Shown piece after piece: positions 11,941-62,974 of a stretch of 64,000 bases of DNA. The stretch is from a virus. Made by a program: the position numbers and the translations under genes. The first letter of the stretch is position 1; each line of letters opens with the position of its first letter. Below the pieces are notes generated by a model. The model was not told where the DNA came from. It was given only the letters and a program-made list of their open reading frames with translations, and ran no database searches. The stretch is taken from positions 32,001 to 96,000 of the IMG/VR virus record IMGVR_UViG_3300045988_100686, one strand, 5' to 3'.

Positions 11941-11941
11941 T

Positions 11942-12098: not shown

Positions 12099-12101
12099 TA
12101 C

Positions 12102-12191
12102 GGAAAGGTGGTCGAGTGGTTTAAGACAGCAGTCTTGAAAACTGCCGAAGACACAAATCTTCCGTGGGTTCAAATCCCACCCTTTCCGCCA
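12102..12191 (+). tRNA. tRNA-Ser (anticodon TGA), long variable arm
   Basis: Acceptor GGAAAGG/CCTTTCC, anticodon arm GCAGT-CTTGAAA-ACTGC, a long variable arm, T-arm GTGGG-TTCAAAT-CCCAC, and CCA. Confidence 0.85.
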
Positions 12192-12555
12192 CAATTATTG
12201 TAATTATATACCGTAGTAACTTCAAAAACTGTTAACAATTAAGAAGAAAATTTCTTCATGCACACAATTTGCAAAAAGCATGACCAAATAATGAGGTTGG
12301 TGACCTGGGATTGCATGGACAAATCCAAAATAACCGGAGCGCGTTAGCTAGTTAGATAAAAGTAGCTTAGTTTCTTAGTTATACAAGTTTATAGAAGATA
12401 AGTTGAATAGACTATTACAAAAATCCTATGATCTACTTCTAGTGAAAGCTAGCAGGATAAACAGTGCCTGGAAGTTCAGACATACGGCAGGTATACAATT
12501 ATTAATATATTAGCATTAACGTGGTGTTAACCAAGTTAAACTGCTAAGTCCACTA

Positions 12556-16037: not shown

Positions 16038-16072
16038 TAGAATTGCAGACTAAAAAGAAAGGTTGTGAGCAT

Positions 16073-21803: not shown

Positions 21804-21822
21804 AAGAAAGGAATGAGGAACA

Positions 21823-22551: not shown

Positions 22552-22572
22552 GTAGTTTTGTCAGAGAGGCGT

Positions 22573-22606
22573 CATAACGGCGTCTCTCTTTTATTATAAG
22601 GAGGTA
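22573..22606 (+). terminator. Rho-independent terminator
   Basis: AGAGAGGCG-loop-CGTCTCTCT (one G-T pair) followed by TTTTATT. Confidence 0.5.
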
Positions 22607-22612
22607 ATTAAA

Positions 22613-22813
22613 ATGACATTTCAGTACAAACAAGTAACATTTTTAAACAAAAGAGACCCCCGGTTGAGCACAGCTGACCAAGTAATTAAGATCTCTAATG
22701 ATTTATATCTGGTAGCTTGCAATCATACTACTCCGTTATTACAGTCTGCAAGTGAAGTGTGCCAAATAGGTAAACTCCTTGGATTCCTTTCCAAAGGAAA
22801 TATTTCCAAATAG
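22613..22813 (+). CDS. hypothetical small protein
   Basis: SD AAGGAGGT upstream; 66 aa. Confidence 0.45.
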   Translation: MTFQYKQVTFLNKRDPRLSTADQVIKISNDLYLVACNHTTPLLQSASEVCQIGKLLGFLSKGNISK

Positions 22814-22854
22814 ATTCCTAAAATTGGTATAAGTATATAAAGGAGGTGACATTG

Positions 22855-23136
22855 ATGGTGCCTAAAAATTTAGATACTATGCGCAGAGAAACGGAGATTG
22901 GACTACACGATCCGCAGGAAATCCAAGATGAATTTATGGTATCTATGCAGAAGCTTACTACTATGCTCCTAGAAGTTAAAACACAGGAACTAGAAGATTC
23001 TCAGCGTACTCTACAAAAATTTAATAAAGATTTTTCACTCCTTCAAGCAATGGAGTACTGGGCATATCTTACTATAGCATTCATTTTGGGTGTTATATCA
23101 GGGATAGGGATTATAAAAACCGTTCTCGAAAAGTAG
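22855..23136 (+). CDS. small protein with C-terminal TM segment
   Basis: ATG at 22855 with AAGGAGG 8 nt upstream; the ORF track starts at a GTG at 22846. C-terminal TM segment YLTIAFILGVISGIGIIKTVL. Confidence 0.5.
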   Translation: MVPKNLDTMRRETEIGLHDPQEIQDEFMVSMQKLTTMLLEVKTQELEDSQRTLQKFNKDFSLLQAMEYWAYLTIAFILGVISGIGIIKTVLEK

Positions 23137-23163
23137 TTTAGGTTAAGGAGGTAGGTGAGTGAT

Positions 23164-23283
23164 ATGTGGGGAGATCCGGGCTTACTGTTGGTTATGCTAA
23201 GATACCTAAGAATTATGCTGTTATGCATGTGTCTATGTGTATTTATAATAATAGCATTTATCAACTATATTATTGCTAGTTAA
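23164..23283 (+). CDS. unlisted 39-aa hydrophobic peptide
   Basis: Strong SD TTAAGGAGGTAGG 7 nt before the ATG. Sequence MWGDPGLLLVMLRYLRIMLLCMCLCVFIIIAFINYIIAS. Below the ORF-track size cutoff. Confidence 0.3.
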   Translation: MWGDPGLLLVMLRYLRIMLLCMCLCVFIIIAFINYIIAS

Positions 23284-23297
23284 AGGAGGTGAGGTTA

Positions 23298-23819
23298 ATG
23301 AATATTGTAGAAGACGTACTTCAAAAGTTGGGTGTGAAAAAGAGAGAAATCTTTACAATTGATGAGTCACGAAGATTACTAATGATTGATACATTTGGAA
23401 CTATATGGACTCCAAAATGTCCAGACAACCCTACAGGTAATTGGGAGACGATTAGCATTGACGTATCAAAATTACTTAGTAGCACTGCATCCATAACGCA
23501 TATTCCTTGGTTGCCGCATACAGGTCAGCCATATTATGCGTTAGTGGATCAGGAGTCTGTGGAACCTGCAAGAACCTATGGTTTTGCGAATAAAACGTAC
23601 CTTTTAATACTTGAGTGTAGATACTGGAAAAATGACATTCTAGAAAGAGCACTGTATAGAATGAATATGGTCTTTCAAACATTTGAAGAGTGTAATGCAG
23701 CCAGGTCAGCATTAATTAAACGGTATCCCAATGTCTATGGCGTTGCAGAGGTGGATAAACGTGCAGATTGCATCGTTAGAGCTGTCCAGGGACACACAGA
23801 TTACATTAAAAAACTCTAA
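23298..23819 (+). CDS. hypothetical protein
   Basis: ATG at 23298 with AAAGGAGGTGAGG upstream; the ORF track starts at a GTG at 23289. Confidence 0.55.
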   Translation: MNIVEDVLQKLGVKKREIFTIDESRRLLMIDTFGTIWTPKCPDNPTGNWETISIDVSKLLSSTASITHIPWLPHTGQPYYALVDQESVEPARTYGFANKTYLLILECRYWKNDILERALYRMNMVFQTFEECNAARSALIKRYPNVYGVAEVDKRADCIVRAVQGHTDYIKKL

Positions 23820-23835
23820 GGGGTGGAGATAAATC

Positions 23836-25128
23836 ATGGAAATGCAAGTAGATATAATTAAAGACTTAAAAGAATACAATATTTATTTATTAAGGACTAC
23901 TGGGTCTAAGGATATGTTGAGCGTAGGGTTATCAAGGGCCAACATTACATACGCCATTTTAATTCACAGCATTTGTACAGCGCGAAATAAAGGAGAGACC
24001 TGGCAAATAACGTTAGATGACCTGGCTAAAACTTTTTGCATGGATAAAGTACAGTTGCGAAAATATGCAGTATACCTTGTAAAATTAGGTGTATTAGATG
24101 TTGTTGATAACAACACCTTTATGCCAAAAATGGGCAGTGCACCTGAACAACCATTGTTTATCCCAGTATATACACGCGGTGCCACATTAGAGGATAAAGA
24201 GCTTTGGAGTCCACGCACTCGTATGCTTAGGTCACCGAGGGATACAGCAAATCCTCCAAAGCTTCCCAATGGTGCTATAGGAGCATCCCCAGAGTTATTT
24301 AGTGGCGGGCATACGCTAATCGCTTACAACTACAGGGGATTAGTTAGCGGAACAAACGAGCCAATTAATATAATTGTAGCACACAGTAGTATAAATAGAT
24401 TCTCTGAAACTCTAAAGGCTGCCTGGTTTGCGTCAAACGGTGTAAAGCAAATACCAAATGGTTACGCAGTTTTAAAACAGGGATCGAATTTTTGGGACAT
24501 TGCTACACCTGATCATTTTAAGTCTAATGACTATTGTAAACCTGATTGTGCGCCTGTTCCCTTCTGGCAGGATATTAATGTTAATTTGTTCTTTGGAAAT
24601 ACTGCATCAGAATCCGCCAGAGGAGGATTATATCGTAAACTCCTGCTTCATACACAGGATGTTGTAAAAGACAATCCTCAGTTGCTCCCGTGGATTACTA
24701 ACGTAGGCGTAGGGAACTATATCGAGCTAGTAAAAGAAAGTGGACTTAAAGTTGCGAAAATGCAGCAAGAAGAACTAGTAAAAATGACTACACAGGGCAA
24801 ACGAACTAGTACTACTAGGTTGGTAGCTGAGGAAAAAATCAAGGTTGTTAAACATAATGAACAACACGTAGCTAATGAACAATACGTAGCTAATGAACAA
24901 CATGTAGCTAATGAACAACATGTAGTCAATGAACAACAAGTAGCTAGTGAGCAACGCTTTGAACCTCAGCCAGCACTTAGTATTCGTGGTAGACTTAATC
25001 TGTCATTCACATCTTCTCAGCTAATTCGCAGAGTATTCTCAAGCGACCTTGATGAGTCAACTCAAGATATCCTTGTGGAACACATTATCCAGGCACGTAT
25101 GTGGAAACACTATAATCGCATGAAATAA
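23836..25128 (+). CDS. hypothetical protein with wHTH-like N-terminus and C-proximal hexapeptide tandem repeats
   Basis: SD GGGGTGGAG upstream. Contains (Q/Y)HVANE repeated five times, encoded by an 18-bp tandem repeat. Confidence 0.55.
   Translation: MEMQVDIIKDLKEYNIYLLRTTGSKDMLSVGLSRANITYAILIHSICTARNKGETWQITLDDLAKTFCMDKVQLRKYAVYLVKLGVLDVVDNNTFMPKMGSAPEQPLFIPVYTRGATLEDKELWSPRTRMLRSPRDTANPPKLPNGAIGASPELFSGGHTLIAYNYRGLVSGTNEPINIIVAHSSINRFSETLKAAWFASNGVKQIPNGYAVLKQGSNFWDIATPDHFKSNDYCKPDCAPVPFWQDINVNLFFGNTASESARGGLYRKLLLHTQDVVKDNPQLLPWITNVGVGNYIELVKESGLKVAKMQQEELVKMTTQGKRTSTTRLVAEEKIKVVKHNEQHVANEQYVANEQHVANEQHVVNEQQVASEQRFEPQPALSIRGRLNLSFTSSQLIRRVFSSDLDESTQDILVEHIIQARMWKHYNRMK
24857..24958 (+). 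repeat. 18-bp tandem repeat x5-6 (AATGAACAACAYGTAGCT)
   Basis: Direct reading shows near-perfect units from 24857, encoding NEQHVA repeats. Confidence 0.8.
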
Positions 25129-25133
25129 CAAAA

Positions 25134-25184
25134 AGCCCCGAGACGTAGTGAAAACTACGTTCTCAGGGCTTCTCTTTTTTTTTT
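25134..25184. terminator. bidirectional Rho-independent terminator between convergent modules
   Basis: AGCCCCGAGACGTAGT-gaaa-ACTACGTTCTCAGGGCT stem, with an A-run on the 5' side and a T9 run on the 3' side. Confidence 0.6.
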
Positions 25185-25455
25185 AGCCAACTGTTGTGCG
25201 GTTATTAGCTGCAATTACTGACGCACCACAGCTTACTGGAGCTCCATTTCCAGCTACAGCTTGCCCACTTACAGTTGTTCTCCCTGTGGCAGCGTGACCA
25301 GTAATTAATTTGCCATTATGTCCAGGTATTGGGTCCGGTGATACTGAAGAACCAACGTGTGCTACATTGCTACCAGCTACAGTCGTCCTAGTGGATCCGG
25401 AGGTTACAGAGCCACCGTGTGAATCAGCGTCCCCTACTACACATACAGCACCCAT
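25183..25455 (-). CDS. PAAR-like spike-tip protein
   Basis: 90 aa, Gly/Ser/Thr/Val-rich with a pattern like GDADSHGGSVTSGS...VAHVGSSVSP. SD AAAGGAG upstream on the minus strand. Confidence 0.55.
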   Translation of the reverse strand: MGAVCVVGDADSHGGSVTSGSTRTTVAGSNVAHVGSSVSPDPIPGHNGKLITGHAATGRTTVSGQAVAGNGAPVSCGASVIAANNRTTVG

Positions 25456-25472
25456 AGTCCTACTCCTTTCTT

Positions 25473-26249
25473 TTATGGAAGTTTAACACTAGAAACGTTT
25501 AAACAGTCAAAGTTGTCTGCGTTAAAGGTAATATTTGTTCCGTTAAGAGTAACATTTTTAGCAGTAATCGTTGTATTTCTATCAGCGTCTACATGTAAAA
25601 ATTCTACTCCATTGATATTTAGTTGAATAACGTCAGCATCTTTACCTATGTTTAGATTAACTACTGAAGTTCCTGTACGCTCCCCTACCGTCCTGCGTAC
25701 ATTGATAGTAGTGTTTGTATTATCTGATGTATCTACTTCACAGAATATGTCTGCAGGACCAGATCGTAGTCTGAAAATGCTACACCAGTTTTCCCAAATA
25801 CAGTTTAACATGTTCCATATTGAAGCTAGCTTTCCAGGGGACATGACAATCTTTTTCATATTATCTGTAAACGTTTCTTCTGCACCCATGGATGTTGTAG
25901 CTGAAGTATTTCCAGGCAACGTTCCGCTATTTCTCATCGTAGACGGACCTCGATTAATCGTAGCATTCGTAGGAGATAATACTTGACCATTCGTGTCTGC
26001 ATTTACATTTATTGGAGAGAACGTACCTAGAATAAATGTTTCTTCTCCAGCCTGCGTAAACAAACATGGAGCATTAATGCTCGGTGGAGTTACTGCGTAA
26101 GCACCATTTCGTGGATCATATCTTGAGAATTGACATACAACATTCTGCAGTATTCCACTCCCATCATATGGAACTACTGTAGCTGTCATGGTGTTTGGGT
26201 CATACGCAGTGACTATGCCACGGCGTATTAATCCAGGATGATTAGCCAT
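25473..26249 (-). CDS. baseplate central spike (gpV/gp5-like OB-fold N-terminus + beta-helical C-terminus)
   Basis: N-terminus RRGIVTAYDPNTMTATVVPYDG...VCQFSRY is gpV-like. The C-terminus carries N-x-T-rich repeats. It lies immediately upstream of PAAR. Confidence 0.5.
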   Translation of the reverse strand: MANHPGLIRRGIVTAYDPNTMTATVVPYDGSGILQNVVCQFSRYDPRNGAYAVTPPSINAPCLFTQAGEETFILGTFSPINVNADTNGQVLSPTNATINRGPSTMRNSGTLPGNTSATTSMGAEETFTDNMKKIVMSPGKLASIWNMLNCIWENWCSIFRLRSGPADIFCEVDTSDNTNTTINVRRTVGERTGTSVVNLNIGKDADVIQLNINGVEFLHVDADRNTTITAKNVTLNGTNITFNADNFDCLNVSSVKLP

Positions 26250-26264
26250 TTTTAACCTTCTTTC

Positions 26265-27293
26265 TTACAACTTCCATAGGTTATCATTATTAAATTTCAA
26301 CCCAGAACTACTACTACTAGAAGTATTGGAGCTGTCGATATAATCATTCAAGCCTCTGTCAAGTGCATCACCTGTTGATAATGAGCTTTTGACGCCTGCA
26401 GTTGACACATCTTTAACTGCAGAGGATATTGCCTTATCTAACCCGTTGCCAGAAGAAGACGATTGGACGGAGTCCTGTGCAGCTACTGTTTCTGCTGTTC
26501 CCGCAGTCAACTCTCCAACGCCAATACATCTACCATAAACAATTCCTACGTTGTCAAGTATTTGATAACTACCAGCATTTAATCCCATAGATACAGAAGT
26601 GATTGCACAGCGTTCAAAGTATAACGTACTTATAGATTGCTCCCTACTGGGGGTAAGGAACATTGCCATTATTCCAAATAGCGGTTTCATTGTGAGCGAT
26701 TGAGTAGAATAATTCCAGTTAGGTAGGATGTGCAATCTATTAGTAAGACTGGAGTACGTTCCACACAGTCTACCCATAGTCATTGATCCAGCCTGGGACT
26801 TTCCAGGGATAACAATATTCTCCTCGCAGCGCAGTTCCTTAAATGTTGTTACATTAATACTGCTAGAAAATTGCCAATTCTGGCACAAACCTATAGGTAC
26901 TAACTCTGCTCCTGTGTTCAAATTGGAGTATAACGGCTCACCTGCAAATAGTAGGACAGAGTCTGCAGTGGCGAAGTTCTCGGGGGTAGTTTCCATTTCC
27001 ACCCATTTGAAAGACCCCGTGTTAGCATCTCCACTAGATGTTTGAGTATGAGCGGCTTCACCAGCAACAGAGGAGTTTGTCAGTCCTAAGATGTTAAGAA
27101 TGTTGGTAACATTATCTCCAACACGTAACATTCTATTAAGTTGTAACGGTACCTTGGGTAGCTTTACTAATCCTAGTGTTGCACTGCTAATACCATTACG
27201 TAAACCGTTATAACTATTTTTTAGCGCGGTAGTATCATTAACTACTGTTTGCGCACCATTAAGAAAAGTGAGTGCTTGTGAAGCCCAATTCAT
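26265..27293 (-). CDS. baseplate/tail hypothetical protein
   Basis: 342 aa with a Ser-rich stretch, in the tail module. Confidence 0.5.
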   Translation of the reverse strand: MNWASQALTFLNGAQTVVNDTTALKNSYNGLRNGISSATLGLVKLPKVPLQLNRMLRVGDNVTNILNILGLTNSSVAGEAAHTQTSSGDANTGSFKWVEMETTPENFATADSVLLFAGEPLYSNLNTGAELVPIGLCQNWQFSSSINVTTFKELRCEENIVIPGKSQAGSMTMGRLCGTYSSLTNRLHILPNWNYSTQSLTMKPLFGIMAMFLTPSREQSISTLYFERCAITSVSMGLNAGSYQILDNVGIVYGRCIGVGELTAGTAETVAAQDSVQSSSSGNGLDKAISSAVKDVSTAGVKSSLSTGDALDRGLNDYIDSSNTSSSSSSGLKFNNDNLWKL

Positions 27294-45987: not shown

Positions 45988-47910
45988 TTATTTCATGGTT
46001 CTATCAATCAATGCATTATCTATTGCATTTCCTGCTAGACTTGATACTAGTGATTGACCTCTTCCTCTGAATATTATACCGTTAAGTAATGTTGTGCCAA
46101 CATTTGCAACGGTGTCTCCAAATGCTGCCAATTTTTCATGAAATTCTACGTTTCCTGCTGTTTTTAACATGCTCTGCTCTACATTAGAATGTTTCTGTAA
46201 TGCAATATTTACTGCTACAGGAGCAACTAGAGATATAATATCATCTGTTTCTGCTGCACATTTCTCTAGATTATTATAGTTATCTGTGGATATAAAATGA
46301 CTCATCACAAATGGTATCACAGGTTCGTTTATACTCGATGTTTTCTGCATCTGTAGTTCCTGCGGGGTTGGTGTTGCTTTCTTAGAGTGGAGTAAAGCTG
46401 CTGCTGCCGTTAAAATTGCCCAAACCTTAGGATCAGTTAGTAGCTTCTTGACCGTCGGTACATTATTGTACGCTGCGTAAAGTGCCCCAAGAGTATATCC
46501 AGTTACTGCAGGGTTTAGTGGCGGCTTTTTGTTTCGCAAGTACATCTCATACTGCTGAGGTGTCATTTGTACTGGCACAGTAGCATAGGGATCTTGTTGA
46601 ACTAAAATTGTTCCCGGCACTTGATCTCCTGCGATATTGGTACAGCTCTCCGGAATGCGAACTTGTCCGAAAGTTAGAGCAGGATTCATAGCCCATGCAG
46701 TACTCGGAATATCAATGTTTAATGCAGCTAACTTCTCTACACTGTCCATTACTGCAGGAAGGAAAGATGAACGCTTAATTAGGAATGGTTCAACTAATCT
46801 GCTTACCTGCTTTATGGTTTCTCCTCCAGGATTTGATACTGGTTTCGCTGCCAATAATCCTGACAATACTTCTCCAAATGAATCCAAGGGCAGGCCACGT
46901 TGAACGATAATTATTCTTGTAGCTTCACGAGGTTTCAACTGGATGGCATTTGCGAATAAACTCTTTAAAATGTCTGGGAAAGAATATCTTAATGCAAGAT
47001 GATCAAGCAGCGGAATAGGCAAATCTGGTTGCATTTCTTTTATCACCGGGTTGACCCCTGCTATTCCTGCGTTCATTACTCTTACTGCACCAGAGTTTAT
47101 TCGTTTAATCATTGCCAACTTATTAAAACTTGGTGTTGACGCTGTTTTTAGGAGTTCGTCGTCTTCAATATCAAAAGTACGTGCTACCTGAGCAACTGGA
47201 ATACAATTACCTAGATTTTCAAAGTAATCTGCACATTCATCTTGTAGACTGCGTTGATCTGCGCTGGCTACTTTTGATAACACATATGCAATTCTGTCAG
47301 CACGGTGGCGCACGATAGAAATATCAAAGAACGTTGGATTATAATTTATCATAAACGGTTGTTTGCCGTCGGGGTAAATCTTTTTCTTGTCATACTTTAT
47401 ATGAGAACAGTAGTCTGATTTTCTACGTGCTTTATTGCCACAGATGGAGCACACATCATAGGCTACTCTGCAACCCATACTTACTTCAAGCTGTTCCCCA
47501 GCTTCCTGCCTGCGAACAAACTCTGCACCCTTGATTTTATCAATGGCTAGAATAAGTTCTACGCGATGCATTTTTGGATTGTACCATGAGAATACTACTT
47601 TGCCATAATCTTGACTAGTAGGCTTATTGTCATGCTCTTTAAATACTTTTGCTGTTGTAACAAAGGTGTTGTGTCTAGCAATCAGGTCCTTTTCGGGGAA
47701 GTAGTCACCGTTAATATTGCAACCATAGTATTCACCAGCGCCCATAGCTATTACATGCAAATACATGAAACCTGGATCAGGGGTAAAAGTAGACAAGAAT
47801 TCTGTTATTTCAGGACTCTGTCCTCGTAGTTCATCAAAGTTCGCAAGTTTTACTCTTGCTTCACCTGTATTCTCAAAGGTACTTCCTAGAGAATATTGTT
47901 TACCAAGCAT
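45988..47910 (-). CDS. large head-module protein (possible portal or prohead component) with Cys cluster
   Basis: 640 aa containing CRVAYDVCSICGNKARRKSDYCSH. Shares the FFD-S/T-V-R-RADR-AY motif with the protein at 49921-50691. Confidence 0.4.
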   Translation of the reverse strand: MLGKQYSLGSTFENTGEARVKLANFDELRGQSPEITEFLSTFTPDPGFMYLHVIAMGAGEYYGCNINGDYFPEKDLIARHNTFVTTAKVFKEHDNKPTSQDYGKVVFSWYNPKMHRVELILAIDKIKGAEFVRRQEAGEQLEVSMGCRVAYDVCSICGNKARRKSDYCSHIKYDKKKIYPDGKQPFMINYNPTFFDISIVRHRADRIAYVLSKVASADQRSLQDECADYFENLGNCIPVAQVARTFDIEDDELLKTASTPSFNKLAMIKRINSGAVRVMNAGIAGVNPVIKEMQPDLPIPLLDHLALRYSFPDILKSLFANAIQLKPREATRIIIVQRGLPLDSFGEVLSGLLAAKPVSNPGGETIKQVSRLVEPFLIKRSSFLPAVMDSVEKLAALNIDIPSTAWAMNPALTFGQVRIPESCTNIAGDQVPGTILVQQDPYATVPVQMTPQQYEMYLRNKKPPLNPAVTGYTLGALYAAYNNVPTVKKLLTDPKVWAILTAAAALLHSKKATPTPQELQMQKTSSINEPVIPFVMSHFISTDNYNNLEKCAAETDDIISLVAPVAVNIALQKHSNVEQSMLKTAGNVEFHEKLAAFGDTVANVGTTLLNGIIFRGRGQSLVSSLAGNAIDNALIDRTMK

Positions 47911-52777: not shown

Positions 52778-53290
52778 TCATCCTTTTGGCATCTGTTTTA
52801 CTGCGTCAGCAATTGTTTTATATAGAAGAGCTCCAGTTGCTACATTACCTGCAGTAGCTAGCGCTCCAGCGGCACGGGTCTCATTCTTTGTAATCCCAAG
52901 ATCCCTAAAGTTTAATGTACCAGACCCATTCTGGATTCTTTGCTTGATTGTCTTGTAAGTGATTAAGAATGATGGTGCTGAAGCAATAAGTGATGCTACT
53001 TGTAGTAAATGTGGTTTTTGACGTGCACTAATAAGTTGTCCAATGTCAATCGTTGTTCTAATTGCACCTTTGATAGCCAAAGCAGCGACAAGAACAAAGA
53101 TTTTACGAATAACAAGCTCTTTTTTGCTCAGCTGAAATCCATCTGTTATCTCTTCTTTTGACATTACTGTATGATCTGGGATTAAGTAAATAGCTGCTAC
53201 ACAGACTACTAGGGGAATACCCTTGCTTATTAAAAACCGTTTTACTTGTTCTCCAATTATATTTGCGAGCATTTGTTCGTCTCTGCCCAT
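52778..53290 (-). CDS. membrane protein (multi-TM)
   Basis: IPLVVCVAAIYLI and FVLVAALAIKGAI hydrophobic segments. Confidence 0.5.
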   Translation of the reverse strand: MGRDEQMLANIIGEQVKRFLISKGIPLVVCVAAIYLIPDHTVMSKEEITDGFQLSKKELVIRKIFVLVAALAIKGAIRTTIDIGQLISARQKPHLLQVASLIASAPSFLITYKTIKQRIQNGSGTLNFRDLGITKNETRAAGALATAGNVATGALLYKTIADAVKQMPKG

Positions 53291-55992
53291 TAGTACCTCC
53301 CGTCTTTACCTTTTCCGAATCCTGTTCCGCGTGCGTAGGAAGGAATAGGATTATAAGAGTGTAATGGACTACGTGATTGTGTAGCAGCGTTATCAATAAG
53401 CTTCTCTTTTAAGTATTTAAATCCAAAGTTAGCCATCCAATCATGTTTGTAGGTTGGGGCTTTATTGGTACCCTTCTGGAAGGGAACAAACTTTGGTGGA
53501 CGCTTGCTAGGATTCTTGCGAATATCTGCTGCTAGCTGGTTATAGTCTACTACGTCTCCTTCAATGAGATCATCAAAATCTCCCGGATCAATAATCTGTA
53601 CGTAGTTTATTAATCCACGAGCGATTACCTCAAAGTTTTTCTTTACACTATCGAGTCCTGCACCATGGTACAGAGTATCAAGACTCTGAATAAACTGCTT
53701 GCGACCAGTATCTATGCCTTTGTAAGGTACAACCTTGCTAATGTTTAGAATACCGTCTGTTAATGGGTCGCCAGCTTCTACTCTATCCCCAACCTTTACT
53801 TTCAGTGTTCTTGTTGGCGGTATGTAGTACTTCTTACGGCCTATGTATACGTTCTGTCCGCCTGCAGGTGCTGCCTGTATGTTTGTGATTGTTCCAGATA
53901 CTTCAGTAATAACTGCTGCACCACTAAACTTAGTGGACATATTAAAGAACGCCTTTACCGTGTTAAAACCAATTGCCTCACCTGCTGCAGTACCTGCTGT
54001 ATGTTTAGATGACAGGCCTAACTGTGTAAAAGGTTCTGAAATAGCGTGAGCAGATACTACACCTACATTTTCACCGATATCAGGGAATTTCAATTTCTCG
54101 TTGTACCCGTAGCAATATTGGCATACACCATCATGTGCTTCACATGTAGCTGGGCTACGTACCTCAACCTGAGGAACTCCACGACGTTTTAATTGTTCAT
54201 AATAGTTGGCATCGATAAACTTGTTTGTCTTCGCCTCAACACGGTTAATGATATTCTTAGTATCGTTAATGTCACGTACTAAACCACGTTTACATCCGCA
54301 ATCCTTTTTGGTAACTACGATATCAAGTACGTTGCCAATAAGTTCTTTTGCTAATGCGCCTGCAGGAGCTACGGATAGCTTTGCACCAACAGTACCTTTA
54401 CGGGTGCCATAGGATGATACAAAGTAATCGGCAGGACTTAGACCCTCGTTGTATGATGTGTGAATCAAGGAAGGAATAAGTTTATCTTTAGGATCTGCTA
54501 CTACTGTAGGACTAGTTATGATCTGCATTACTTGTCCTTTTGACCCCTTGGAGCCTGTATATGCCCACTGCTGGAATGTGTTGTCAGTTGCCTCATCTGT
54601 GAGTTTCTGTGCAAATGCCTGAGCTTTACGTAATATCTTGCCTTTTTCTGCATCGACTTGTTTGGGTGTAAGATCTTTGCGTTTGTCAATATCTGCCAGC
54701 TCTTGGTCAATCTTATTGAAGTATATGTTACGCTTTTTCTTCAACTCATCCATATCGAAGTCAGTTGCTTTGTAAGATACACCTAATCTATAGGCAAATA
54801 ATGCTCCCAACTCTTTTAGACCATCAGCAATCCTGGTATATTCTTTTGGCCATCTCTGTCCTACCTGGGTAAGAAGGCCGCTCATTACGGATTTATTCCA
54901 CACTTTGTCATAATTACGCAATGGCATTGGGAATAGCTCATTGATAAGTACTGCACCTGCAGTTGTCTTAAACTGTCTGTATTGAACAGGGGCGTCTGGC
55001 TTAATCATTCCCATGCGGATATTTTCGTGAAGCTGTTTAACGTTTTGTACAGGAGTGAATCGTGTACTTTTATCAAACGTTGGGAGAGTCTTTGTTGCTG
55101 CAAATAATCCAAACACTGATTCCTGCTGTGGTAACATCATAGGTCCCATGTTGCGGGGTGAGAATAAGTTGTGACTTGGAGTCATTTTCTCCAGTGCTTC
55201 TAACCTTGCTTCTTCCGTTGCAGGTACATGAAGCTGCATGGTATCATAAACTAGAATACCGTTGGCTATGAAAAGTGGAAACTCCGGGACCGTGAAGTCG
55301 TAAGTTATTTCTTCTCGGTCAACTTCTTCTACAGAAGTCACCTCATCCCATACATATGGCAGGTTTAAATATGGATTTGCTGGGTTTACCTTAGCTACAT
55401 CACTGATCTGTACTAGTGCGCCATTCTCTGGTATTCTTACTGCGTTGTAGTCCAAGTATAAACGTGTGTTTACTATTTTGCAAAAGATACCCTGACGTGC
55501 TAGTATTACTTTAGCTAATTCTAGCTCTTGCTTATCCTTTACCTTCCAGTACATACTAGGATTTTCTGTGTTATCTGTGGTATCAAAGTGGACCATTGCT
55601 AACAATGCCGTGCCAAGATCATCTGTTGATAAATTTAGCATATAATATGAAAACTTGTTTGGTTTAAAGTTATCCATTGCAAACTTACGCATAGCTTTTG
55701 CTTGTGCAGTTTTCTTTGGAATATATGATATCATACGCATTATAGGCACGAATTTACCAAGTGCATCCTGGGGAGGTAATGGAGCAAAAAATGTTTCACT
55801 TCCGTTTGTTGCCAATGAGTGGTCATCGGTTACTGTGATCTCGTAGCCACAAGAGGTGCAGATTCTGTACATCTTCCCATGCTCTGTGTGTACACTTCGC
55901 TCAGTGTAATCCATGAATTCATTGGTGTTTGTAGCAGGGCAATAGGTTAATACTTTTCCCTTAACTACAGTTGAGTTACTTTGGGTACTCAT
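53290..55992 (-). CDS. RNA polymerase beta-prime-like protein (C-terminal-half homolog) with N-terminal intein-like element
   Basis: Three strong beta-prime motifs. (1) LHVPATEEARLEALEKMTPSHNLFSPRNMGPMMLPQQESVFGLF matches the VHVPLSLEAQLEAR...SPANGEP...PSQD..LG segment after the catalytic loop. (2) The bridge-helix region TGSKGSKGQVMQI...SYNEGLSPADYFVSSYGTRKGTVGAKLSVAPAGALAKELIGNVLD matches SGARG...FREGL..[33 protein letters not shown]. (3) The trigger-loop region AISEPFTQLGLSSKHTAGTA matches GEPGTQLTMRTFHTGG. In the N-terminal 250 aa, C18 plus ITVTDDHSLATNG (block B, TxxH-like) and TYDFTVPEFPLFIANGILVYD|T (blocks F/G) resemble intein splicing motifs. SD GGAGG upstream. Confidence 0.7.
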   Translation of the reverse strand: MSTQSNSTVVKGKVLTYCPATNTNEFMDYTERSVHTEHGKMYRICTSCGYEITVTDDHSLATNGSETFFAPLPPQDALGKFVPIMRMISYIPKKTAQAKAMRKFAMDNFKPNKFSYYMLNLSTDDLGTALLAMVHFDTTDNTENPSMYWKVKDKQELELAKVILARQGIFCKIVNTRLYLDYNAVRIPENGALVQISDVAKVNPANPYLNLPYVWDEVTSVEEVDREEITYDFTVPEFPLFIANGILVYDTMQLHVPATEEARLEALEKMTPSHNLFSPRNMGPMMLPQQESVFGLFAATKTLPTFDKSTRFTPVQNVKQLHENIRMGMIKPDAPVQYRQFKTTAGAVLINELFPMPLRNYDKVWNKSVMSGLLTQVGQRWPKEYTRIADGLKELGALFAYRLGVSYKATDFDMDELKKKRNIYFNKIDQELADIDKRKDLTPKQVDAEKGKILRKAQAFAQKLTDEATDNTFQQWAYTGSKGSKGQVMQIITSPTVVADPKDKLIPSLIHTSYNEGLSPADYFVSSYGTRKGTVGAKLSVAPAGALAKELIGNVLDIVVTKKDCGCKRGLVRDINDTKNIINRVEAKTNKFIDANYYEQLKRRGVPQVEVRSPATCEAHDGVCQYCYGYNEKLKFPDIGENVGVVSAHAISEPFTQLGLSSKHTAGTAAGEAIGFNTVKAFFNMSTKFSGAAVITEVSGTITNIQAAPAGGQNVYIGRKKYYIPPTRTLKVKVGDRVEAGDPLTDGILNISKVVPYKGIDTGRKQFIQSLDTLYHGAGLDSVKKNFEVIARGLINYVQIIDPGDFDDLIEGDVVDYNQLAADIRKNPSKRPPKFVPFQKGTNKAPTYKHDWMANFGFKYLKEKLIDNAATQSRSPLHSYNPIPSYARGTGFGKGKDGRY

Positions 55993-56063
55993 TAAATTTC
56001 TAAACCTCCAATCTAATCTAGGTTTCTAAAGATCATTATACCGGGAAATTATGTAACAAAAAA

Positions 56064-57312: not shown

Positions 57313-58793
57313 GTAATGAAAATATGGCTTCAGGCTATATAAATTATATTGCTGATGCTAGTACCTCAGTAATTGGACGTAATAGAGGGAAGTGGGAATT
57401 GTCACAAAAGTATGTTCAGTATTTAGATGATACTACTGAATATGCACTTGGACTAATATTTGGACCTTATCAGCTTAATCATTTTGGTTGCTACGTAGCA
57501 ACTAGAATATTTTCTTCTATTCTTACTCCTGGTAAGAAAAACGGGTTAATGACACCCAATGAAGCTCGTGGAGCTATTGAAGATAATCTTTACTGTGATG
57601 TGAATTTGCCGACATTGTTTTTCAATGCCTTGGTGCTCTTAAAATTCATGCAGTTCGGAGACGATACTTTTGCTTCCCCTACAGCTTTCAAGTATATAAA
57701 ACGAGTCCAGACAAGTGGATCCCGAGGAACTATTGTTAACATGAAAATTATTCCATTTGTATCTGGGCTTGTTACTCCAGAGACAATGCTTAAGGGAGTA
57801 AAGATCCTGTGTGCAATAGCTGCATTAAAACCAGAGGTATATGAAGCAGTTCAAGAAATATACAATGATATTAATAAAGAATTACTCAGAAATATAATGG
57901 TAAATGCATCTGAATTGCTTGACCTTAGGATAGAGAGTGGCAAAATTGCAATACCTATGTTTAAACTTGGTGCTCCTGGTATCCCGCTCGAACTTGTACT
58001 CGATGATTATAAGGAGTTTTCACTTAAGCTCGAAGAACTTGCCTCTAGAATTTTAGAGGCGTGCAATGGTAGCTTAGAAGATTTCCTTCAAGCTATATTT
58101 GCTCTTGACATTGATAATATAACTACCTATAAGGAGGAAAACACAATGATGGTTGTAACTGAAATACTGAGGAATCTGATTAATAAAGGTATACTGATTA
58201 CTCGTGATGGCAGACTGCTGTCCATCAACATTACTGATGAAGATACTGTTCAGGTTAATCCTTTCAATAATAATGATGCGGAACGCCCGACTATTGCAAA
58301 TTTGACCATTGAACGTAACGGTACTACAGAGGAAATCATTACTCTGAAGGATGATAGATTAGAACATATTATTGATACCGCTCAAAACGTTCTGAATTCT
58401 AGTGTAAACAATGCTATCAACAATGACAGAAATGTCAGAGTACAGCGTGCTTCTATGGCATCTGCTACACCTGCTACACCGGAAATGCGTAGAAATGCTG
58501 ACGGGTCTATTTCTGTGCATAGAACAGTTGGCTCTTTCCGTATGTGGGCCCCAGCTACTCCTGCAGAGGCAGCTCAATTTGAGCGTACACAGCAACAACA
58601 AGCTCAACAAGATCAGCTTGCAGCTGGTGAGGATACAGAACGGGATGCCATTGTTGAAACCGTAGAAGATAGTCCTGAAGATATTGTCATGGTTTCTGTT
58701 GTGGAAAACAATAGTGTGCGTGTAAGACGTATGACTCGTGAAGAAGCTGAAGATCAAGAACTTGCTATCGTAAGTGTTATTGAAAGACGGTGA
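57309..58793 (+). CDS. hypothetical 494-aa protein in the Ubl-conjugation operon (possible adaptor/target-recognition component)
   Basis: GTG start with GGAGG 8 nt upstream. The C-terminus is acidic and Gln-rich. Confidence 0.5.
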   Translation: MSNENMASGYINYIADASTSVIGRNRGKWELSQKYVQYLDDTTEYALGLIFGPYQLNHFGCYVATRIFSSILTPGKKNGLMTPNEARGAIEDNLYCDVNLPTLFFNALVLLKFMQFGDDTFASPTAFKYIKRVQTSGSRGTIVNMKIIPFVSGLVTPETMLKGVKILCAIAALKPEVYEAVQEIYNDINKELLRNIMVNASELLDLRIESGKIAIPMFKLGAPGIPLELVLDDYKEFSLKLEELASRILEACNGSLEDFLQAIFALDIDNITTYKEENTMMVVTEILRNLINKGILITRDGRLLSINITDEDTVQVNPFNNNDAERPTIANLTIERNGTTEEIITLKDDRLEHIIDTAQNVLNSSVNNAINNDRNVRVQRASMASATPATPEMRRNADGSISVHRTVGSFRMWAPATPAEAAQFERTQQQQAQQDQLAAGEDTERDAIVETVEDSPEDIVMVSVVENNSVRVRRMTREEAEDQELAIVSVIERR

Positions 58794-58800
58794 TTATACA

Positions 58801-59607
58801 ATGGCTATGAATATTAAAAAGATAGAATTTGAAGACAATTCTGCTGTAGTAACCATGAGGGATCCTGACGAACTTATTGGTCTTGTACGTAAAAGAGTGT
58901 CGATTGATGCTCTAATTCAAGCCCTTGGAAAGATTAGTACATCCCAATCTATGCTTATTCCTCCTAACTGCAGGGGCATTTGGGAGACTAAAAACAATAA
59001 GTATTTCCTGTTTATCATCCCGGCACACATGGGCAAGACTGCCGTAGTGTGGTATAAAACTGACACTGATAACTATGGAGCTCCGGGTAGTAGTACTAAG
59101 TTGGAGAACCAGCCTGAACATATTCAGTCAATGTATGAAGACTCAGAAGACAGTGACTACATTAGAGTGTTCAACACTCCATTCCCAGATGCGTGTGTGT
59201 TGATTAAAATGACAAAGGCTGGTAGCAATAAACTTATGTTTAATGATATCAGAGCATGGTCTATTAAGAGTACTATGCTTCCTCTAGATAAAACAGCAGT
59301 ATACCGCTGGCCGTTCTTTAATATGTATGGTGATGCAAGAGTATGCATTGGTGATATCCCCAGAGAGTATCCTAATGTAGAATCTGTTGCTAGTATTATT
59401 AATTACCTATATATTGGCGTAGGTAACCATGATCTTGATCATACTCCATATGTAATTCCTGATAATAAGTTTGGAATCAAAAATTCTTTTCAGTTGGTCA
59501 AATACCTTGATGAAAACAAGTTGACTGTATTTCCAAGGGAGTTACTGTGTAGTTTTGGTACATCGATCATTGAAACAGTAGAAAATATTGTTGCTAATGG
59601 AAATTAA
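58801..59607 (+). CDS. E2-like (UBC-fold) ubiquitin-conjugating enzyme homolog
   Basis: FFNMYGDARVCIGDI...VESVASIINYLY aligns with the UBC core FHPNVYADGSICLDIL...VSSILTSIQSLL; the catalytic Cys sits in RVCIG. The ORF track starts at a GTG at 58774. Confidence 0.5.
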   Translation: MAMNIKKIEFEDNSAVVTMRDPDELIGLVRKRVSIDALIQALGKISTSQSMLIPPNCRGIWETKNNKYFLFIIPAHMGKTAVVWYKTDTDNYGAPGSSTKLENQPEHIQSMYEDSEDSDYIRVFNTPFPDACVLIKMTKAGSNKLMFNDIRAWSIKSTMLPLDKTAVYRWPFFNMYGDARVCIGDIPREYPNVESVASIINYLYIGVGNHDLDHTPYVIPDNKFGIKNSFQLVKYLDENKLTVFPRELLCSFGTSIIETVENIVANGN

Positions 59608-59621
59608 TGGAGGTAAAAATA

Positions 59622-61472
59622 ATGGCAGTTCCAAACCAATATAATAAATATGCTTCTTTATATACTGTGCCCAAAAAGCCAGAACTCACAGACGTCCAAA
59701 AACGTCTTATTGAACGTATGCAACGTAGTCGCTGCAAAATCTGGGAGTCCTATGCTGCGTATACTGCAGCTGATGAATCTGATAAGAAACCAGACAATTA
59801 CTTCCCAACTAAAACTGGTTGGGGTATTGCGCGCAAGCGTGTTCTCAATGGTAATAGTGTGGAGTTCGTTACAACTGTTCCAGAATGTCCGCTGGTTGAT
59901 GAAATCCAACCCAAAGTTGTTCTTGATATTCATAATAAAATCCCTGGATCTCTGCTCCAGGAGATTCTTGCAAACTTTAACAAAGTATGCGAGGACTCTA
60001 ATAATGAGTGTGCTGCTCAGATTTACCGTGAGCGAGATGGTGAAAGAAAGTATTTCATTTATTACCCTGAACAAAAGGTGTCTACTGCTCAAGTAACCTA
60101 TACTCATGATCCACAGCTCATGGAACTCGCAAAGGCATATGACCTCATCATGGAGCTGCATTCCCATGATTCTATGGGTGCATTCTGGTCTGGCACAGAT
60201 GACAGTAATGAGAACACTTGTGGATTCTACATGGTAATTGGCAGATTTAACTCTTCTGTAGTTGAGTACAAATGCCGTGCAAAACTTGATAAACTGTATG
60301 CTGATTTTAATTGCTCTGAAATCTTTGATTTCGGTGACACACCTGAAGAACAAATCCTTACTCGTGAAAACTTTATTGCTCCGAATGATGAACTGGATAA
60401 GAAGATCACAAAAGAAAGCCTTACTTATTATAATGGTGCGTATCAAGCTTGTTATGACATGTGGAACTATGGTGGTTATTCTTATCAAGGATACAATGAC
60501 TATAATTATGGTAAATCAACTAAGAAATCTCAGAGATACCTTGCTAAAACAGAACTGGCTGCACGTAAACGCTTGATGGCTAAATTGAAGAATGCTCCGG
60601 AATCCATCTTCCCGGAAGACGCTCTTTATAATGAGCTCTGGGATCATGCAGACTATATCAAAGCCAGAAAACGTTGGGAATGCTGTGGGTACTATGATAA
60701 CCAGGAGGCCATGAAGGAATGCTGGAAACGAATCCCAAAAAACCAGGCAGGCGCGGAAGAGGAGGTGAGTCAAGACGCCGTCGTTGCCTCTGATTATGTA
60801 ACTCGTATGAGCAAGTGCTACTCTGCAGATGGGTTCCAAAATACCCATACAGCTGGTGGAGTTGCCACTGGCATTGAAACTGCGGAATATCTTGCTGGTA
60901 ATGGAGATGAGGCAGCTGCACGTTATGGCACGCTTCCGGGCAAGATTCAACAATACAGTAATTTTGATTTAGATCTTGGCACTGCTGATGTGAATGACCA
61001 AGACTACAATGATAATCTTAATATGGCTGTGGCTAGCAGAACTGAGTCCCAGTCTAACATTGAGACATTCTTGCAGGAAGGAATGGGCGGGGTCCGTGAA
61101 GAGACTGAAAACAAATTTATTGCTAATGTAATGAATATTGCGTTTCTTCACACCCCGTCAGCCAGTATCAACGTCGGAGTGTTCTGGGAGTTGCTTACAC
61201 CGGTTGAGAAAACTAGACTGGCAAAAGCATTCCACTGCTCTGTTATGGATCTTGCTACTCTGCTTATTGGCAGCAGCGCTGTTGTTGCATCTCCTGATGT
61301 AGCAGAGTTCCTGTATAAGTGCATCCTTGGTGATGCTAAGTATGTAGAATGTAAGCTTGGTCTTATTACCAGTAAGGTCATGGCTGAAAAGCCGTCTACT
61401 GCTGCTCAATTTGTAGCACTCATCCATGAGATGCTTGAGGTTGAAAGAGATGTTAAGGAGGCAAAGGAATGA
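59622..61472 (+). CDS. JAB/MPN (JAMM) metallopeptidase-domain protein (deubiquitinase-like)
   Basis: JAMM motif ELHSHDSMGAFWSGTDD (HxHx7Sx2D) with an upstream Glu. The ATG at 59622 has TGGAGGT 8 nt upstream. The stop overlaps the E1 start (ATGA). Confidence 0.7.
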   Translation: MAVPNQYNKYASLYTVPKKPELTDVQKRLIERMQRSRCKIWESYAAYTAADESDKKPDNYFPTKTGWGIARKRVLNGNSVEFVTTVPECPLVDEIQPKVVLDIHNKIPGSLLQEILANFNKVCEDSNNECAAQIYRERDGERKYFIYYPEQKVSTAQVTYTHDPQLMELAKAYDLIMELHSHDSMGAFWSGTDDSNENTCGFYMVIGRFNSSVVEYKCRAKLDKLYADFNCSEIFDFGDTPEEQILTRENFIAPNDELDKKITKESLTYYNGAYQACYDMWNYGGYSYQGYNDYNYGKSTKKSQRYLAKTELAARKRLMAKLKNAPESIFPEDALYNELWDHADYIKARKRWECCGYYDNQEAMKECWKRIPKNQAGAEEEVSQDAVVASDYVTRMSKCYSADGFQNTHTAGGVATGIETAEYLAGNGDEAAARYGTLPGKIQQYSNFDLDLGTADVNDQDYNDNLNMAVASRTESQSNIETFLQEGMGGVREETENKFIANVMNIAFLHTPSASINVGVFWELLTPVEKTRLAKAFHCSVMDLATLLIGSSAVVASPDVAEFLYKCILGDAKYVECKLGLITSKVMAEKPSTAAQFVALIHEMLEVERDVKEAKE

Positions 61473-62974
61473 AGAAAACTGTGTTAGCTATCGGGCCTGC
61501 TAGTCCGTATGTGAATCTCTTGGCAACTGTTCAAGAGCATTTAAATGACTTAAGTGTCATTAAACCTAATTTTAATAACCTTCATATCATTCAGCTCGGT
61601 GCTGGTGGTACTGGCGGTTATGTAGCGTATGAAATACTTCGTATGCTTGGTAATATTCCAGAGGTGTTAAAACCGTATATCCATTATACACTGATAGATG
61701 GTGATACGTATGAGCCAAAGAATATTGGCAGACAACTTTGCTGTGAAGATGATATCGGTAAGTATAAAGCTCAGGTCCTCGTTGAAGAGTATGGAGAACT
61801 CTTTGGTGTTACTCCAGACCAAGCGTCTCATATCGATGAGTATTTTACTGCTATCAGCCAGCTGGCTGTTCTTCCAAAATTCCCTCTGCCAATCTGGTCT
61901 GTATTTGTAGACGATGAAGTAGAAAAGTTCTTCAAAGACTCTGAAGCTGCAGTTGCACTTAATTCTAAACAGCCACATATCAATGCAACAGCTACGTCAT
62001 TTATCATTATTGACTGTGTTGACAAAAATGCTCCGCGTAAACTATTACATGATTACTTTACAGATATCTCCAGTTTGCCCAGTACTTTGGCGCGTCTGAA
62101 CTATTGTTGCAATGCTGTTCCTGACTGTGATAAGATCACTGCTACTGGGCAGCAAATCATTGCACATAACAACGGTGGTAACAGCCTGCTTGGAAGTATG
62201 TACGGTGTCACCCCGATTCGTGATATCTACATCATCTCATCCGGCAATGGCAAGTATACTGGCCAAGTATCCTGGGGAAGAAAAAGCTTCCTTGGTAACT
62301 CCAGTGGTTCTATGCACTACAAGGATATCTTTGGTGACAAGGATGTATCTTCTATTATTGGACCTAAGATTAATACGAATGATGAAGTAGAGGCTGTCGA
62401 TATTACTCCGGGTATGACAGACGCTGATGTAAACCAGTTGCGGCTTAAAGCATTGGCTGAGGAGTATTTTACACCGTCTAATGTAAAGAGATTCCAGGAT
62501 AATGTATTCCAAGAAATTGTGGATCCTGCTACTGGCAGATTGTCAAATGGTTACATTAAGTCTATCCCGATTCCAATTACTAACCCAGAGGAACCTGAGC
62601 TTGAAACTGGACACCCGATGCTCAAAAACATGAATATGTTCATGTCTGCTTTTATGTCTACACCTACTCCGTATGACAGGTTCCCGGAGCTTACAGACCT
62701 TGAGATTGATGCAAGAGAAGAGGCGATGAGCTGCGCGGAGCGTGCAGAACATAATGTACAGTCTATCAATGCTAATAAAACTGCTGCAGCTCTTGTAGTA
62801 AATTACTTCACATCTATCTTTAATGGTATGTATATGTTTGAAAAGGAAGTACCCGTTCTTACTACTGAGACTACACGTTTCAACATATTAACGGGCGAGT
62901 ACTCTTCTGACCCGATTACTACGGATTCTCTGCGTATCCCTGTGGAAACACGCAAAAGAGTTCGCGCATTTTAA
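61469..62974 (+). CDS. E1-like ThiF/MoeB-family adenylyltransferase
   Basis: Nucleotide-binding loop HIIQLGAGGTGGYVAYEI and YTLIDGDTYEPKNIGRQL, which matches the ThiF/MoeB D-D-V-SNL-RQ pattern. SD GGAGGCAAAGGA upstream. Confidence 0.75.
   Translation: MKKTVLAIGPASPYVNLLATVQEHLNDLSVIKPNFNNLHIIQLGAGGTGGYVAYEILRMLGNIPEVLKPYIHYTLIDGDTYEPKNIGRQLCCEDDIGKYKAQVLVEEYGELFGVTPDQASHIDEYFTAISQLAVLPKFPLPIWSVFVDDEVEKFFKDSEAAVALNSKQPHINATATSFIIIDCVDKNAPRKLLHDYFTDISSLPSTLARLNYCCNAVPDCDKITATGQQIIAHNNGGNSLLGSMYGVTPIRDIYIISSGNGKYTGQVSWGRKSFLGNSSGSMHYKDIFGDKDVSSIIGPKINTNDEVEAVDITPGMTDADVNQLRLKALAEEYFTPSNVKRFQDNVFQEIVDPATGRLSNGYIKSIPIPITNPEEPELETGHPMLKNMNMFMSAFMSTPTPYDRFPELTDLEIDAREEAMSCAERAEHNVQSINANKTAAALVVNYFTSIFNGMYMFEKEVPVLTTETTRFNILTGEYSSDPITTDSLRIPVETRKRVRAF

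Follow-up and report, generated by a model that had tools for sequence, protein, structure and literature searches.

A probable C-terminal half of an atypically split intein at the catalytic loop of a phage RNA polymerase

The viral DNA analysed here, called the window throughout, is a stretch of 64,000 nucleotides (nt) corresponding to positions 32,001 to 96,000 of IMG/VR record IMGVR_UViG_3300045988_100686. Its feature of interest is a minus-strand open reading frame (ORF) of 900 amino acids (aa) at 53290..55992, of which aa 251-900 correspond to beta-prime of an RNA polymerase, covering its C-terminal ~60%. An intein-like element had been proposed in the initial annotation for residues 18-250 of this ORF (55243-55941), and both the ORF and the placement were confirmed. 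The present analysis indicates, with a probability of roughly 0.93, that aa 1-250 are the C-fragment (IntC) of a natural, atypically split class-1 intein with Ser1, Thr at +1 and a C-terminal Asp, an architecture deduced from sequence comparison and a predicted structure.

The polymerase portion was delineated by profile searches, in which Pfam Rpb1 domains 3, 4 and 5 were found and TIGR02386 (rpoC) matched aa 250-874 at profile positions 446-1119 of 1147 (E=4.6e-86); the score of the 900-aa ORF, 289.6 bits vs the cutoff of 963.5, falls short of that of a full-length beta-prime. The intein-like region is an in-frame insertion at a conserved host site, as rpoC homology restarts at residue 250 (profile position 446), directly past the Asp triad, and its proposed end at the catalytic-loop position (NADFDGD) is thereby borne out. 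D250-TMQLHVP of the window aligns with D-QMAVHVP, which follows NADFDG in bacterial beta-prime (E. coli). The rest of the C-extein, that is, beta-prime from just past the catalytic Asp triad to its C-terminus, starts with TMQLHVPATEEARLE and occupies 53293..55239 on the minus strand (Pfam Rpb1 3-5, TIGR02386).

The start of the ORF, suspected earlier of being misannotated, is sound. Upstream, the reading frame is closed by an in-frame stop, the TAG at 56026-56028; zero ATG, GTG or TTG codons lie between this TAG and the ATG at 55992, and a GGAGG motif resembling a ribosome-binding site was read directly from the minus strand at 56005..56009, 12 nt upstream of the ATG. With a stop upstream and no alternative start, the 900-aa protein therefore cannot be extended N-terminally. 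An AT-rich divergent intergenic region lies upstream, and the gene is the head of a long minus-strand block which includes a head-protease-like gene.

Homologs with the same architecture (48 protein clusters, 50-99% identity) were obtained from independent ENA, Logan, JGI and NCBI assemblies, and the identical 900-aa protein was found on several contigs, including those of sample ERR414371 and assembly GCA_900525205.1. When 50,697 phage records were searched, neither the gene itself (megablast) nor aa 1-250 (tblastn) had a match, and the best identity of the whole 900-aa protein in phage records was only 30%, to Vibrio phage D69 and Salmonella phage Arash.

Intein signals in aa 1-250 were obtained from several sources that agree with one another, namely Pfam and TIGR profiles, an AlphaFold model and a fold search of the PDB, and the element is real. 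Pfam Intein_splicing (PF14890) matched with E=1e-8 and 35.5 bits, slightly below its 35.8 cutoff, while TIGR01445 (intein_Nterm) scored 24.8 bits vs a cutoff of 24.5 with aa 31-62 on profile positions 50-83, and TIGR01443 (intein_Cterm), which covers blocks F/G, scored 21.7 bits vs 15.6. Sequence matches in the PDB were the inteins 6rpq, 4o1r and 1mi8, in the region of blocks F/G; Pfam Hint and Hint_2 had no match to the window protein. The model of aa 1-258, built with 32 homologs, has a predicted local distance difference test (pLDDT) score of 89.7 and a predicted template modelling score (pTM) of 0.87. Every significant Foldseek match of this model in the PDB is an intein, the top match being the endonuclease-bearing PhoVMA (7qst, E=6.7e-8), followed by 7qss and 1dq3 (TliVMA and PI-PfuI follow PhoVMA) and then by mini-inteins including 2lqm, 6frg and 5o9i. 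The horseshoe-shaped Hint fold is thus recovered, and aa 12-250 are predicted, from both sequence and model, to form a Hint/intein domain. Absence of any Hint signal had been named beforehand as the outcome that would overturn an intein; the signal is present in profiles as well as in structure prediction, and the intein assignment stands.

All of these profile matches begin late, at position 42 of 155 in the Pfam profile and at position 50 of 83 in TIGR01445. Pfam positions 1-41 and TIGR01445 positions 1-49 being unmatched, block A with the first nucleophile is absent from the 900-aa ORF, and no Cys or Ser at intein position 1 is found in the same polypeptide as the other blocks. The 900-aa ORF alone is therefore not a complete intein.

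Going along the minus strand from the start codon, the first part is a variable leader (aa 1-11, MSTQSNSTVVK, 55960..55992), which corresponds to a broken surface loop of the intein; it is of low pLDDT, and among homologs it is 2-30 aa long with 20% mean pairwise identity and 45% gaps. The N part of the Hint core follows (aa 12-85, 55738..55959), matched by TIGR01445 and modelled as beta strands. It contains block B, ITVTDDHSLAT (aa 52-62, 55807-55839), so that the Thr-x-x-His motif claimed previously is real and consists of T55-D-D-H58. An inserted alpha/beta domain occupies aa 86-205 (55378..55737), and the C part of the Hint core aa 206-250 (55243..55377, TIGR01443). The latter closes with blocks F/G, ITYDFTVPEFPLFIANGILVYD (aa 229-250, 55243-55308), also confirmed as proposed by the TIGR01443 score; this segment ends in Asp250, an accepted kind of intein terminus along with Asn and Gln, and is followed by Thr251 (codon 55240..55242), a +1 residue of the Cys/Ser/Thr kind which opens the C-extein and is the predicted second nucleophile.

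The insert merits separate description, since a LAGLIDADG-like stretch had been suggested within it. In this respect the suggestion holds only in part. There was no LAGLIDADG family match at E<=10 in a Pfam scan of the 900-aa protein and no conserved set of catalytic acidic residues, only 1 of the 120 insert columns being invariant, but the stretch does lie inside a folded alpha/beta insert, which contains the 'DLGTALLAMVHFD' helix. DSSP of the model gives a helix at 123-133, two strands, a helix at 154-166 and two further strands, that is, one alpha-beta-beta-alpha-beta-beta unit at aa 123-180, and the best fold matches of the model are the endonuclease-bearing 7qst, 7qss and 1dq3; with the whole aa 1-258 model as query, the highest query TM-scores, 0.56-0.64, likewise go to endonuclease-bearing inteins. 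The insert is probably a decayed homing-endonuclease or DNA-recognition remnant, and its decay is as expected of an intein that can no longer home, being split and fixed.

Conservation was assessed on an alignment of 45 homologs of about 860-905 aa each, 50-99% identical and of the same architecture, and mean pairwise identity by region was computed among 43 of the homologs. The Hint core is 62% identical in its N part and 70% in its C part, the polymerase extein 60%, and the insert 25%. Residues T55, D57 and H58 of block B, Y231 and D232 of block F, D250 and T251 are invariant in the 45 homologs. Conservation of the splicing core matches that of the essential enzyme, and the core is under purifying selection.

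Further insight was gained from related metagenomic phages in which beta and beta-prime are encoded in one ORF of 2,100-3,000 aa and in which an unbroken intein of 169-660 aa lies directly past DFDGD (loci L042-L044, L046-L048, L051, L052 and L057; proteins P0183, P0219, P0232, P0272, P0314 and others). Their C-terminal junctions, with a slash before the +1 residue, read ..IIVHN/T, ..VIVHN/T, ..VVVYD/T, ..TIVQD/T, ..AAVWD/C and ..LVVND/T; among the 150 closest representatives, about two dozen proteins have an insertion there with an intein-type C-terminal junction, most of them ending in Asp, and the +1 residue is Thr, Ser or Cys at every occupied site with a credible block-G junction. Relatives free of the intein read DFDGD-[ATQS]xxx[HY]xP. 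Several of the unbroken inteins are about 30% identical to aa 16-165 of the window, insert included. When both forms are aligned jointly, the split is seen to interrupt a variable linker that connects the second strand to 'VLTY', and it is with this linker that the leader of the window protein aligns.

The genes that harbour these unbroken inteins in their catalytic loop are otherwise intact, so splicing in this family must tolerate a terminal Asp, and Asp and Gln termini of inteins are able to cyclise (PMC4031507). A C-terminal Asp thus appears as a family trait, indeed as the norm at this site. The 'YD' in place of HN had been pointed out in the initial annotation; the Asp end is real, but it does not denote decay, since unbroken inteins at the same site mostly end in Asp. 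The notion of 'YD' as the sign of a dead intein was accordingly rejected, on the Asp ends of the unbroken relatives and the conservation of the Hint core.

Two further observations concern this site. A second group of unbroken insertions at the beta-prime DxDGD site ends in '...GVILSN/T' (P0189, P0233, P0273, P0281, P0293 and P0313); most of its members start past the motif with a non-nucleophilic Q, D, Y, K or A, and P0189 starts with Cys. This group may represent a different intein class, or the motif boundary may be offset. At locus L040 (13310-13829) the intein C-terminus and the resumed beta-prime stand in different frames and the ORF stops at 13513, for which a frameshift in sequencing, a pseudogene or some other break may account.

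The missing N-terminal fragment (IntN) was found on a separate gene in relatives. From Arash-like proteins, a profile was built for the stretch of beta-prime up to DxDGD and used in an exhaustive profile search that covered 1.84 billion representative proteins, in which four proteins (P0202, P0230, P0275 and P0291) ended 24-27 residues past the motif, as ...ADFDGD followed by SVSGDTWVIVQDDTGYIELKQIKDVE and the stop. The tail after ADFDGD reads SV[SA]G[DE]TxV...IK[DE]V[ED] up to the stop, for example 'SVSGDTWV...IKDVE', and contains block A only; it is a classic block A of inteins, its position 1 being Ser. The same tail, of 24-33 aa and with invariant Ser1, was found in further partner proteins (P0324, P0326, P0328-P0331) and, besides these proteins, at loci L031-L036 and L050. 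Ser1 is present in all IntN, with V/I at position 2, G at 4, D/E at 5 and T/S at 6 as the other conserved positions.

The partner carries the Pfam domains Rpb2_6, Rpb1_1 and Rpb1_2, corresponding to beta plus beta-prime up to ADFDGD, and the two exteins, the partner up to ADFDGD and the window ORF with Rpb1 domains 3-5, together make the complete host protein. The catalytic loop, considered degenerate before, is intact as ADFDGD and is encoded on the partner gene in relatives. At L050 the partner is a 1,763-aa fusion of beta and the N-terminal part of beta-prime (6926-12217), adjoining a gene of 542 aa that stands where Arash has its annotated portal gene, with the gene order the same as in Arash. 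P0324, which is 76% identical to the L050 partner, sits on a 2.2-kb contig of another assembly.

An IMG/VR scan with the partner proteins gave four long contigs that carry both the partner and the gene for IntC with the C-terminal part of beta-prime (IntC-beta'C), 20-51 kb apart and on opposite strands. In 3300045988_167780 (158.8 kb) the partner lies at 21,143-26,434 (+) and IntC-beta'C at 133,138-130,448 (-); in 3300045988_152794 at about 41.8-47.1 kb (+) and 153.9-151.2 kb (-), respectively; in 3300045988_113839 at 112.0-117.3 kb (+) and 60.9-58.2 kb (-); and in 3300042923_000307 at 22.0-26.1 kb (+) and 1.8-0 kb (-). Compared with the window protein, IntC-beta'C of these contigs shows identities of 68-69% and 50%, and the partner is present at both distances. 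Joining of the fragments was also assessed with TIGR01445, first for the window IntC with the P0324 tail and then for two natural pairs, each from a single contig: IntC alone gave 24.5-25 bits over profile positions 50/56-83, while IntN joined to IntC gave 32.6, 38.4 and 33.6 bits over positions 2-83 of 83. IntN and IntC together make up what the profile reads as a complete intein.

Block A, missing here, is present on the partner in the same genomes, and the evidence points to a split intein. The initial annotation is thus upheld as regards an intein-derived Hint domain at the NADFDGD site and revised as regards its anatomy, the element being in all probability the C-terminal half of an intein that is split. 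Of the three explanations it gave for a 17-residue N-extein (a wrong start, an autoprocessing domain, or splicing that generates a beta-prime C-terminal fragment), none is the best, a split intein being favoured.

The chemistry proposed for this element is drawn from the established class-1 pathway (PMC4031507); what is documented above is the anatomy, the predicted fold, conservation, the partner in relatives and the homologous unbroken inteins. Two precursors would be translated separately, and IntN, of roughly 26 residues, would dock on IntC to complete the Hint fold. Ser1 would then make the first ester, Thr251 (+1) would attack the Ser1 ester, and cyclisation of Asp250 would release an intein of roughly 28 kDa. 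The new peptide bond would join the exteins as '...ADFDGD-TMQLHVP...' (junction ...ADFDGD-TMQLHVPATEEAR), the predicted product being a single-chain beta/beta-prime of about 2,000 residues with its catalytic loop intact. For the L050/L006 genome this product would measure about 1,346 + 650 residues, after a second, unbroken 385-aa intein in beta is also removed. That the split intein actively trans-splices in this manner and so completes the polymerase catalytic loop is considered quite likely from the sequences.

Two matters weigh against this reading. One is the chemistry of the C-terminus, as a C-terminal Asp with a penultimate Tyr belongs to the less efficient chemistries in characterised inteins (PMC4031507). 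The other is that the partner gene of the window itself was not recovered, its existence being deduced from relatives whose IntC-beta'C is 50% and 68-69% identical. No DxDGD/NADxD motif occurs in any of the six frames of the 64-kb window, tblastn with Arash gp206 gave no match in the window, and ten of its large ORFs have no RNA polymerase domain. The polymerase N-half was also absent from the 10-kb gene flanks in 12 related contigs and from 10-kb extensions of both window ends. A DNA pattern search of viral contigs for Y-x-A-D-[FY]-D-G-D-Cys returned one irrelevant match, the pattern having assumed Cys where the nucleophile is Ser, and a word-indexed protein search with the Arash/D69 profile was dominated by Arash-like proteins and did not show the split-intein clade. 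By the geometry of the relatives, the partner of the window should lie outside it, about 47-51 kb beyond position 56,000 and on the plus strand.

An unlikely alternative is that the fragments associate without ligation, the element being a non-covalent docking module or a protease-like maturation device that cleaves only, at the N- and C-terminal junctions, and the polymerase consisting of two chains with the break at the catalytic loop. Phage and cyanobacterial beta-prime does work when split elsewhere, the Arash and D69 genes ending about 88 aa past DYDGD; a docking module would conserve the Hint core in the same way; and the C-terminal Asp, with no His at the penultimate position, could promote side reactions that end in cleavage (PMC4031507). 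However, the unbroken inteins with the same ..YD/T and ..QD/T endings sit in otherwise intact ORFs of 2,000-3,000 aa, in which ligation is needed for function, and all catalytic positions are invariant in the split form, including the +1 Thr, which is needed only for ligation. A retained domain of 276 residues beside the Mg-binding Asp triad would, moreover, probably block the active centre.

Less probable by far is a complete cis-intein, or a bacterial intein-like (BIL) domain, that starts at Cys18 (codon 55939..55941, minus strand) behind a 17-residue N-extein and releases a beta-prime C-fragment. The window does contain Cys18 as well as blocks B, F and G, yet the statement that the domain begins with Cys is true of this sequence and P0003 only; Cys18 is replaced in nearly all homologs by Asn (the consensus), Asp, Lys, Ser or Arg and is not a nucleophile, and the residues before 'VLTY' vary from 2 to 30 in number and are 20% identical, many homologs starting 'M-x-K-VLTY' with 2-3 residues ahead of the first conserved strand. 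In the unbroken inteins at the site, residue 18 aligns to an internal strand and not to position 1, and the first 41-49 intein profile positions that the ORF leaves unmatched are supplied by the partner tail. A start at Cys18 was already ruled out by the homolog alignment. As for an autoprocessing domain of the BIL or Hedgehog type, which would have an N-terminal nucleophile of its own and a variable host position, block A and a conserved nucleophile at the domain start are absent and the insertion lies at the most conserved motif of beta-prime.

A decayed relic, pseudogene or assembly artefact without function, to which the poorly conserved insert and the Pfam score slightly below the gathering threshold might point, has a negligible probability given the recurrence of the architecture in independent assemblies and of the exact protein on several contigs, a Hint core as conserved as the polymerase and an intact ORF with its ribosome-binding-site-like motif.

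The predicted split intein can be compared with several known systems, the closest being the phage terminase inteins GOS-TerL, AceL-TerL and Cat-TerL, in which IntN is 25-37 aa long and IntC has every motif except N1 (PMC2677866, PMC11766414). Like these, the window element is of phage origin and is split near the N-terminus with an IntN of block A/N1 only, and its block F/G resembles that of unbroken phage TerL inteins recovered by chance in the scan, 'ITYDFTVPxTHSFxxNGILGSN/T'. Unlike them, it has an RNA polymerase beta/beta-prime host instead of a terminase, Ser1/Thr+1 nucleophiles instead of Cys1/Cys+1 or Ser1/Cys+1, a C-terminal Asp instead of Asn, and an IntC of 250 aa with a 120-residue insert instead of 104-122 aa; its two genes, moreover, are tens of kb apart and on opposite strands.

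A 2026 paper describes PolB16 as the only known natural cysteine-less, atypically split intein and gives a short-IntN range of about 15-37 aa for atypically split inteins (PMC13014065). The present element shares with PolB16 a natural split near the N-terminus and catalytic nucleophiles of Ser and Thr only. PolB16 has a 15-aa IntN and a DNA polymerase B extein, whereas IntN here is 24-33 aa, the terminal residue is Asp and IntC of the window holds four cysteines, which are non-conserved and apparently non-catalytic. With its IntN of roughly 26 residues and its C-terminal Asp, the clade would add a second family to the natural inteins that are cysteine-less and atypically split.

With the unbroken inteins of the DFDGD site the element shares its insertion point, its +1 residue and, with many of them, Ser1 and the C-terminal Asp, but those are single polypeptides in one ORF and the window element is broken into two genes. 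In common with cyanobacterial DnaE and other canonical split inteins, each of two genes encodes half of an essential enzyme with an intein fragment, to be ligated in trans (here as a prediction). The canonical break, however, is at the endonuclease insertion point, the lengths being about 100-120 aa for IntN and about 35-50 aa for IntC, whereas the window element breaks past block A and its endonuclease-site insert stays in IntC.

On the polymerase side, beta-prime is likewise encoded in two genes in cyanobacteria (RpoC1/RpoC2), Salmonella phage Arash (gp206/gp216) and Vibrio phage D69. No cultured relatives are closer than Arash and D69; their beta'C is about 30% identical, and they too have beta fused to the N-terminal part of beta-prime. 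Their break falls about 88 residues past the Asp triad, is intein-free and goes with non-covalent assembly. Inteins are known in the archaeal RNA polymerase subunits Mja rPol A' and A'' and in eukaryotic and nucleocytoplasmic large DNA virus (NCLDV) RPB2, RPA2 and RPC2 (PMC1635734); similar to the window element they occupy highly conserved sites near the active centre, but those inteins are unbroken, in other subunits or at other sites, and not from bacteriophages. A full-text literature search of incomplete coverage found no report of a split intein, or of the DFDGD insertion site, in a phage RNA polymerase.

Other mobile elements were encountered in and around the polymerase genes of these phages. 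Within the beta part of the L050 partner, aa 573-957 form a separate unbroken intein of LAGLIDADG type (385 aa, ...NLK/CPSGEM...LVIHN/TFL), and another unbroken intein lies within L065 2342-5767 (GDKM/CYSDD...FCGN/TGVHGNK); the polymerase genes of the clade are heavily colonised by inteins. In one lineage (L065 5755-5973, plus strand) a group I intron interrupts the beta gene between '...RVNPG' and 'MAGK...', matching the full-length Rfam model RF00028 with 62.3 bits vs a gathering score of 50 (E=1.5e-15). The proteins P0114-P0173 of a large group of Arash-related phages, 1,113-1,165 aa long, contain beta and only the first ~130 residues of beta-prime, so that in these lineages beta-prime is broken at yet another position.

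The head-protease-like protein of the window (640 aa, 45988-47910, minus strand, with PHROG matches) is represented in related contigs by longer homologs, of 1,070 aa (L001 17967-21179) and 831 aa (L002 17969-20464), in which Hint, Hom_end_hint and LAGLIDADG_3 were found, denoting an intein there and not in the window copy.

Directly across the divergent region from the polymerase gene, at 58774-62974 on the plus strand, are adjacent genes of 277, 621 and 501 aa in which Prok-E2_D, Prok-JAB (E=8e-6) and ThiF/E1-like signals, respectively, are weak or faint, a trio that looks like a phage ubiquitin-like conjugation/deconjugation set. About 50 kb from the polymerase gene, a 314-aa Sigma70_r2 gene (6161-7105, plus strand) was assigned by position correspondence with L027 15347-16291; Arash and D69 likewise encode sigma factors near their polymerase genes. 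The plus strand of the window also encodes a 1,017-aa primase-like protein with Zn ribbon, Toprim and DUF927 (16043-19096), whose ORF overlaps by 86 nt that of a family A DNA polymerase with N-terminal uracil-DNA-glycosylase-superfamily and 3'-5' exonuclease domains (19011-21803). Eight tRNA genes (Gly x2, Met, Leu, Trp, Pro, Thr and Ser) occur on the same strand at 8830-8903, 10593-10665 and 11674-12191, six of them clustered at 11.7-12.2 kb.

Overall, the clade offers at least a dozen distinct natural IntN with Ser1 (24-33 residues) as well as IntC variants with Thr+1 by the dozen, and in four cases IntN and IntC are known as a pair from a single contig. According to the 2026 paper cited above, protein semisynthesis calls for further natural candidates whose N-fragments are short and synthesisable (PMC13014065). 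The DFDGD site is, in addition, a natural series for the study of Asp-dependent C-terminal cleavage. It is conceivable, though doubtful, that the split at the catalytic loop is more than a frozen accident and is used as a post-translational switch. Active polymerase could then arise only if the two transcription units, about 50 kb apart on opposite strands, are both expressed and splicing goes ahead, which would couple the assembly of the polymerase, or its loading into virions, to the infection programme. If the predicted trans-splicing does take place, a multisubunit RNA polymerase of a phage would acquire a complete catalytic centre only post-translationally, out of pieces whose genes lie tens of kilobases from each other.

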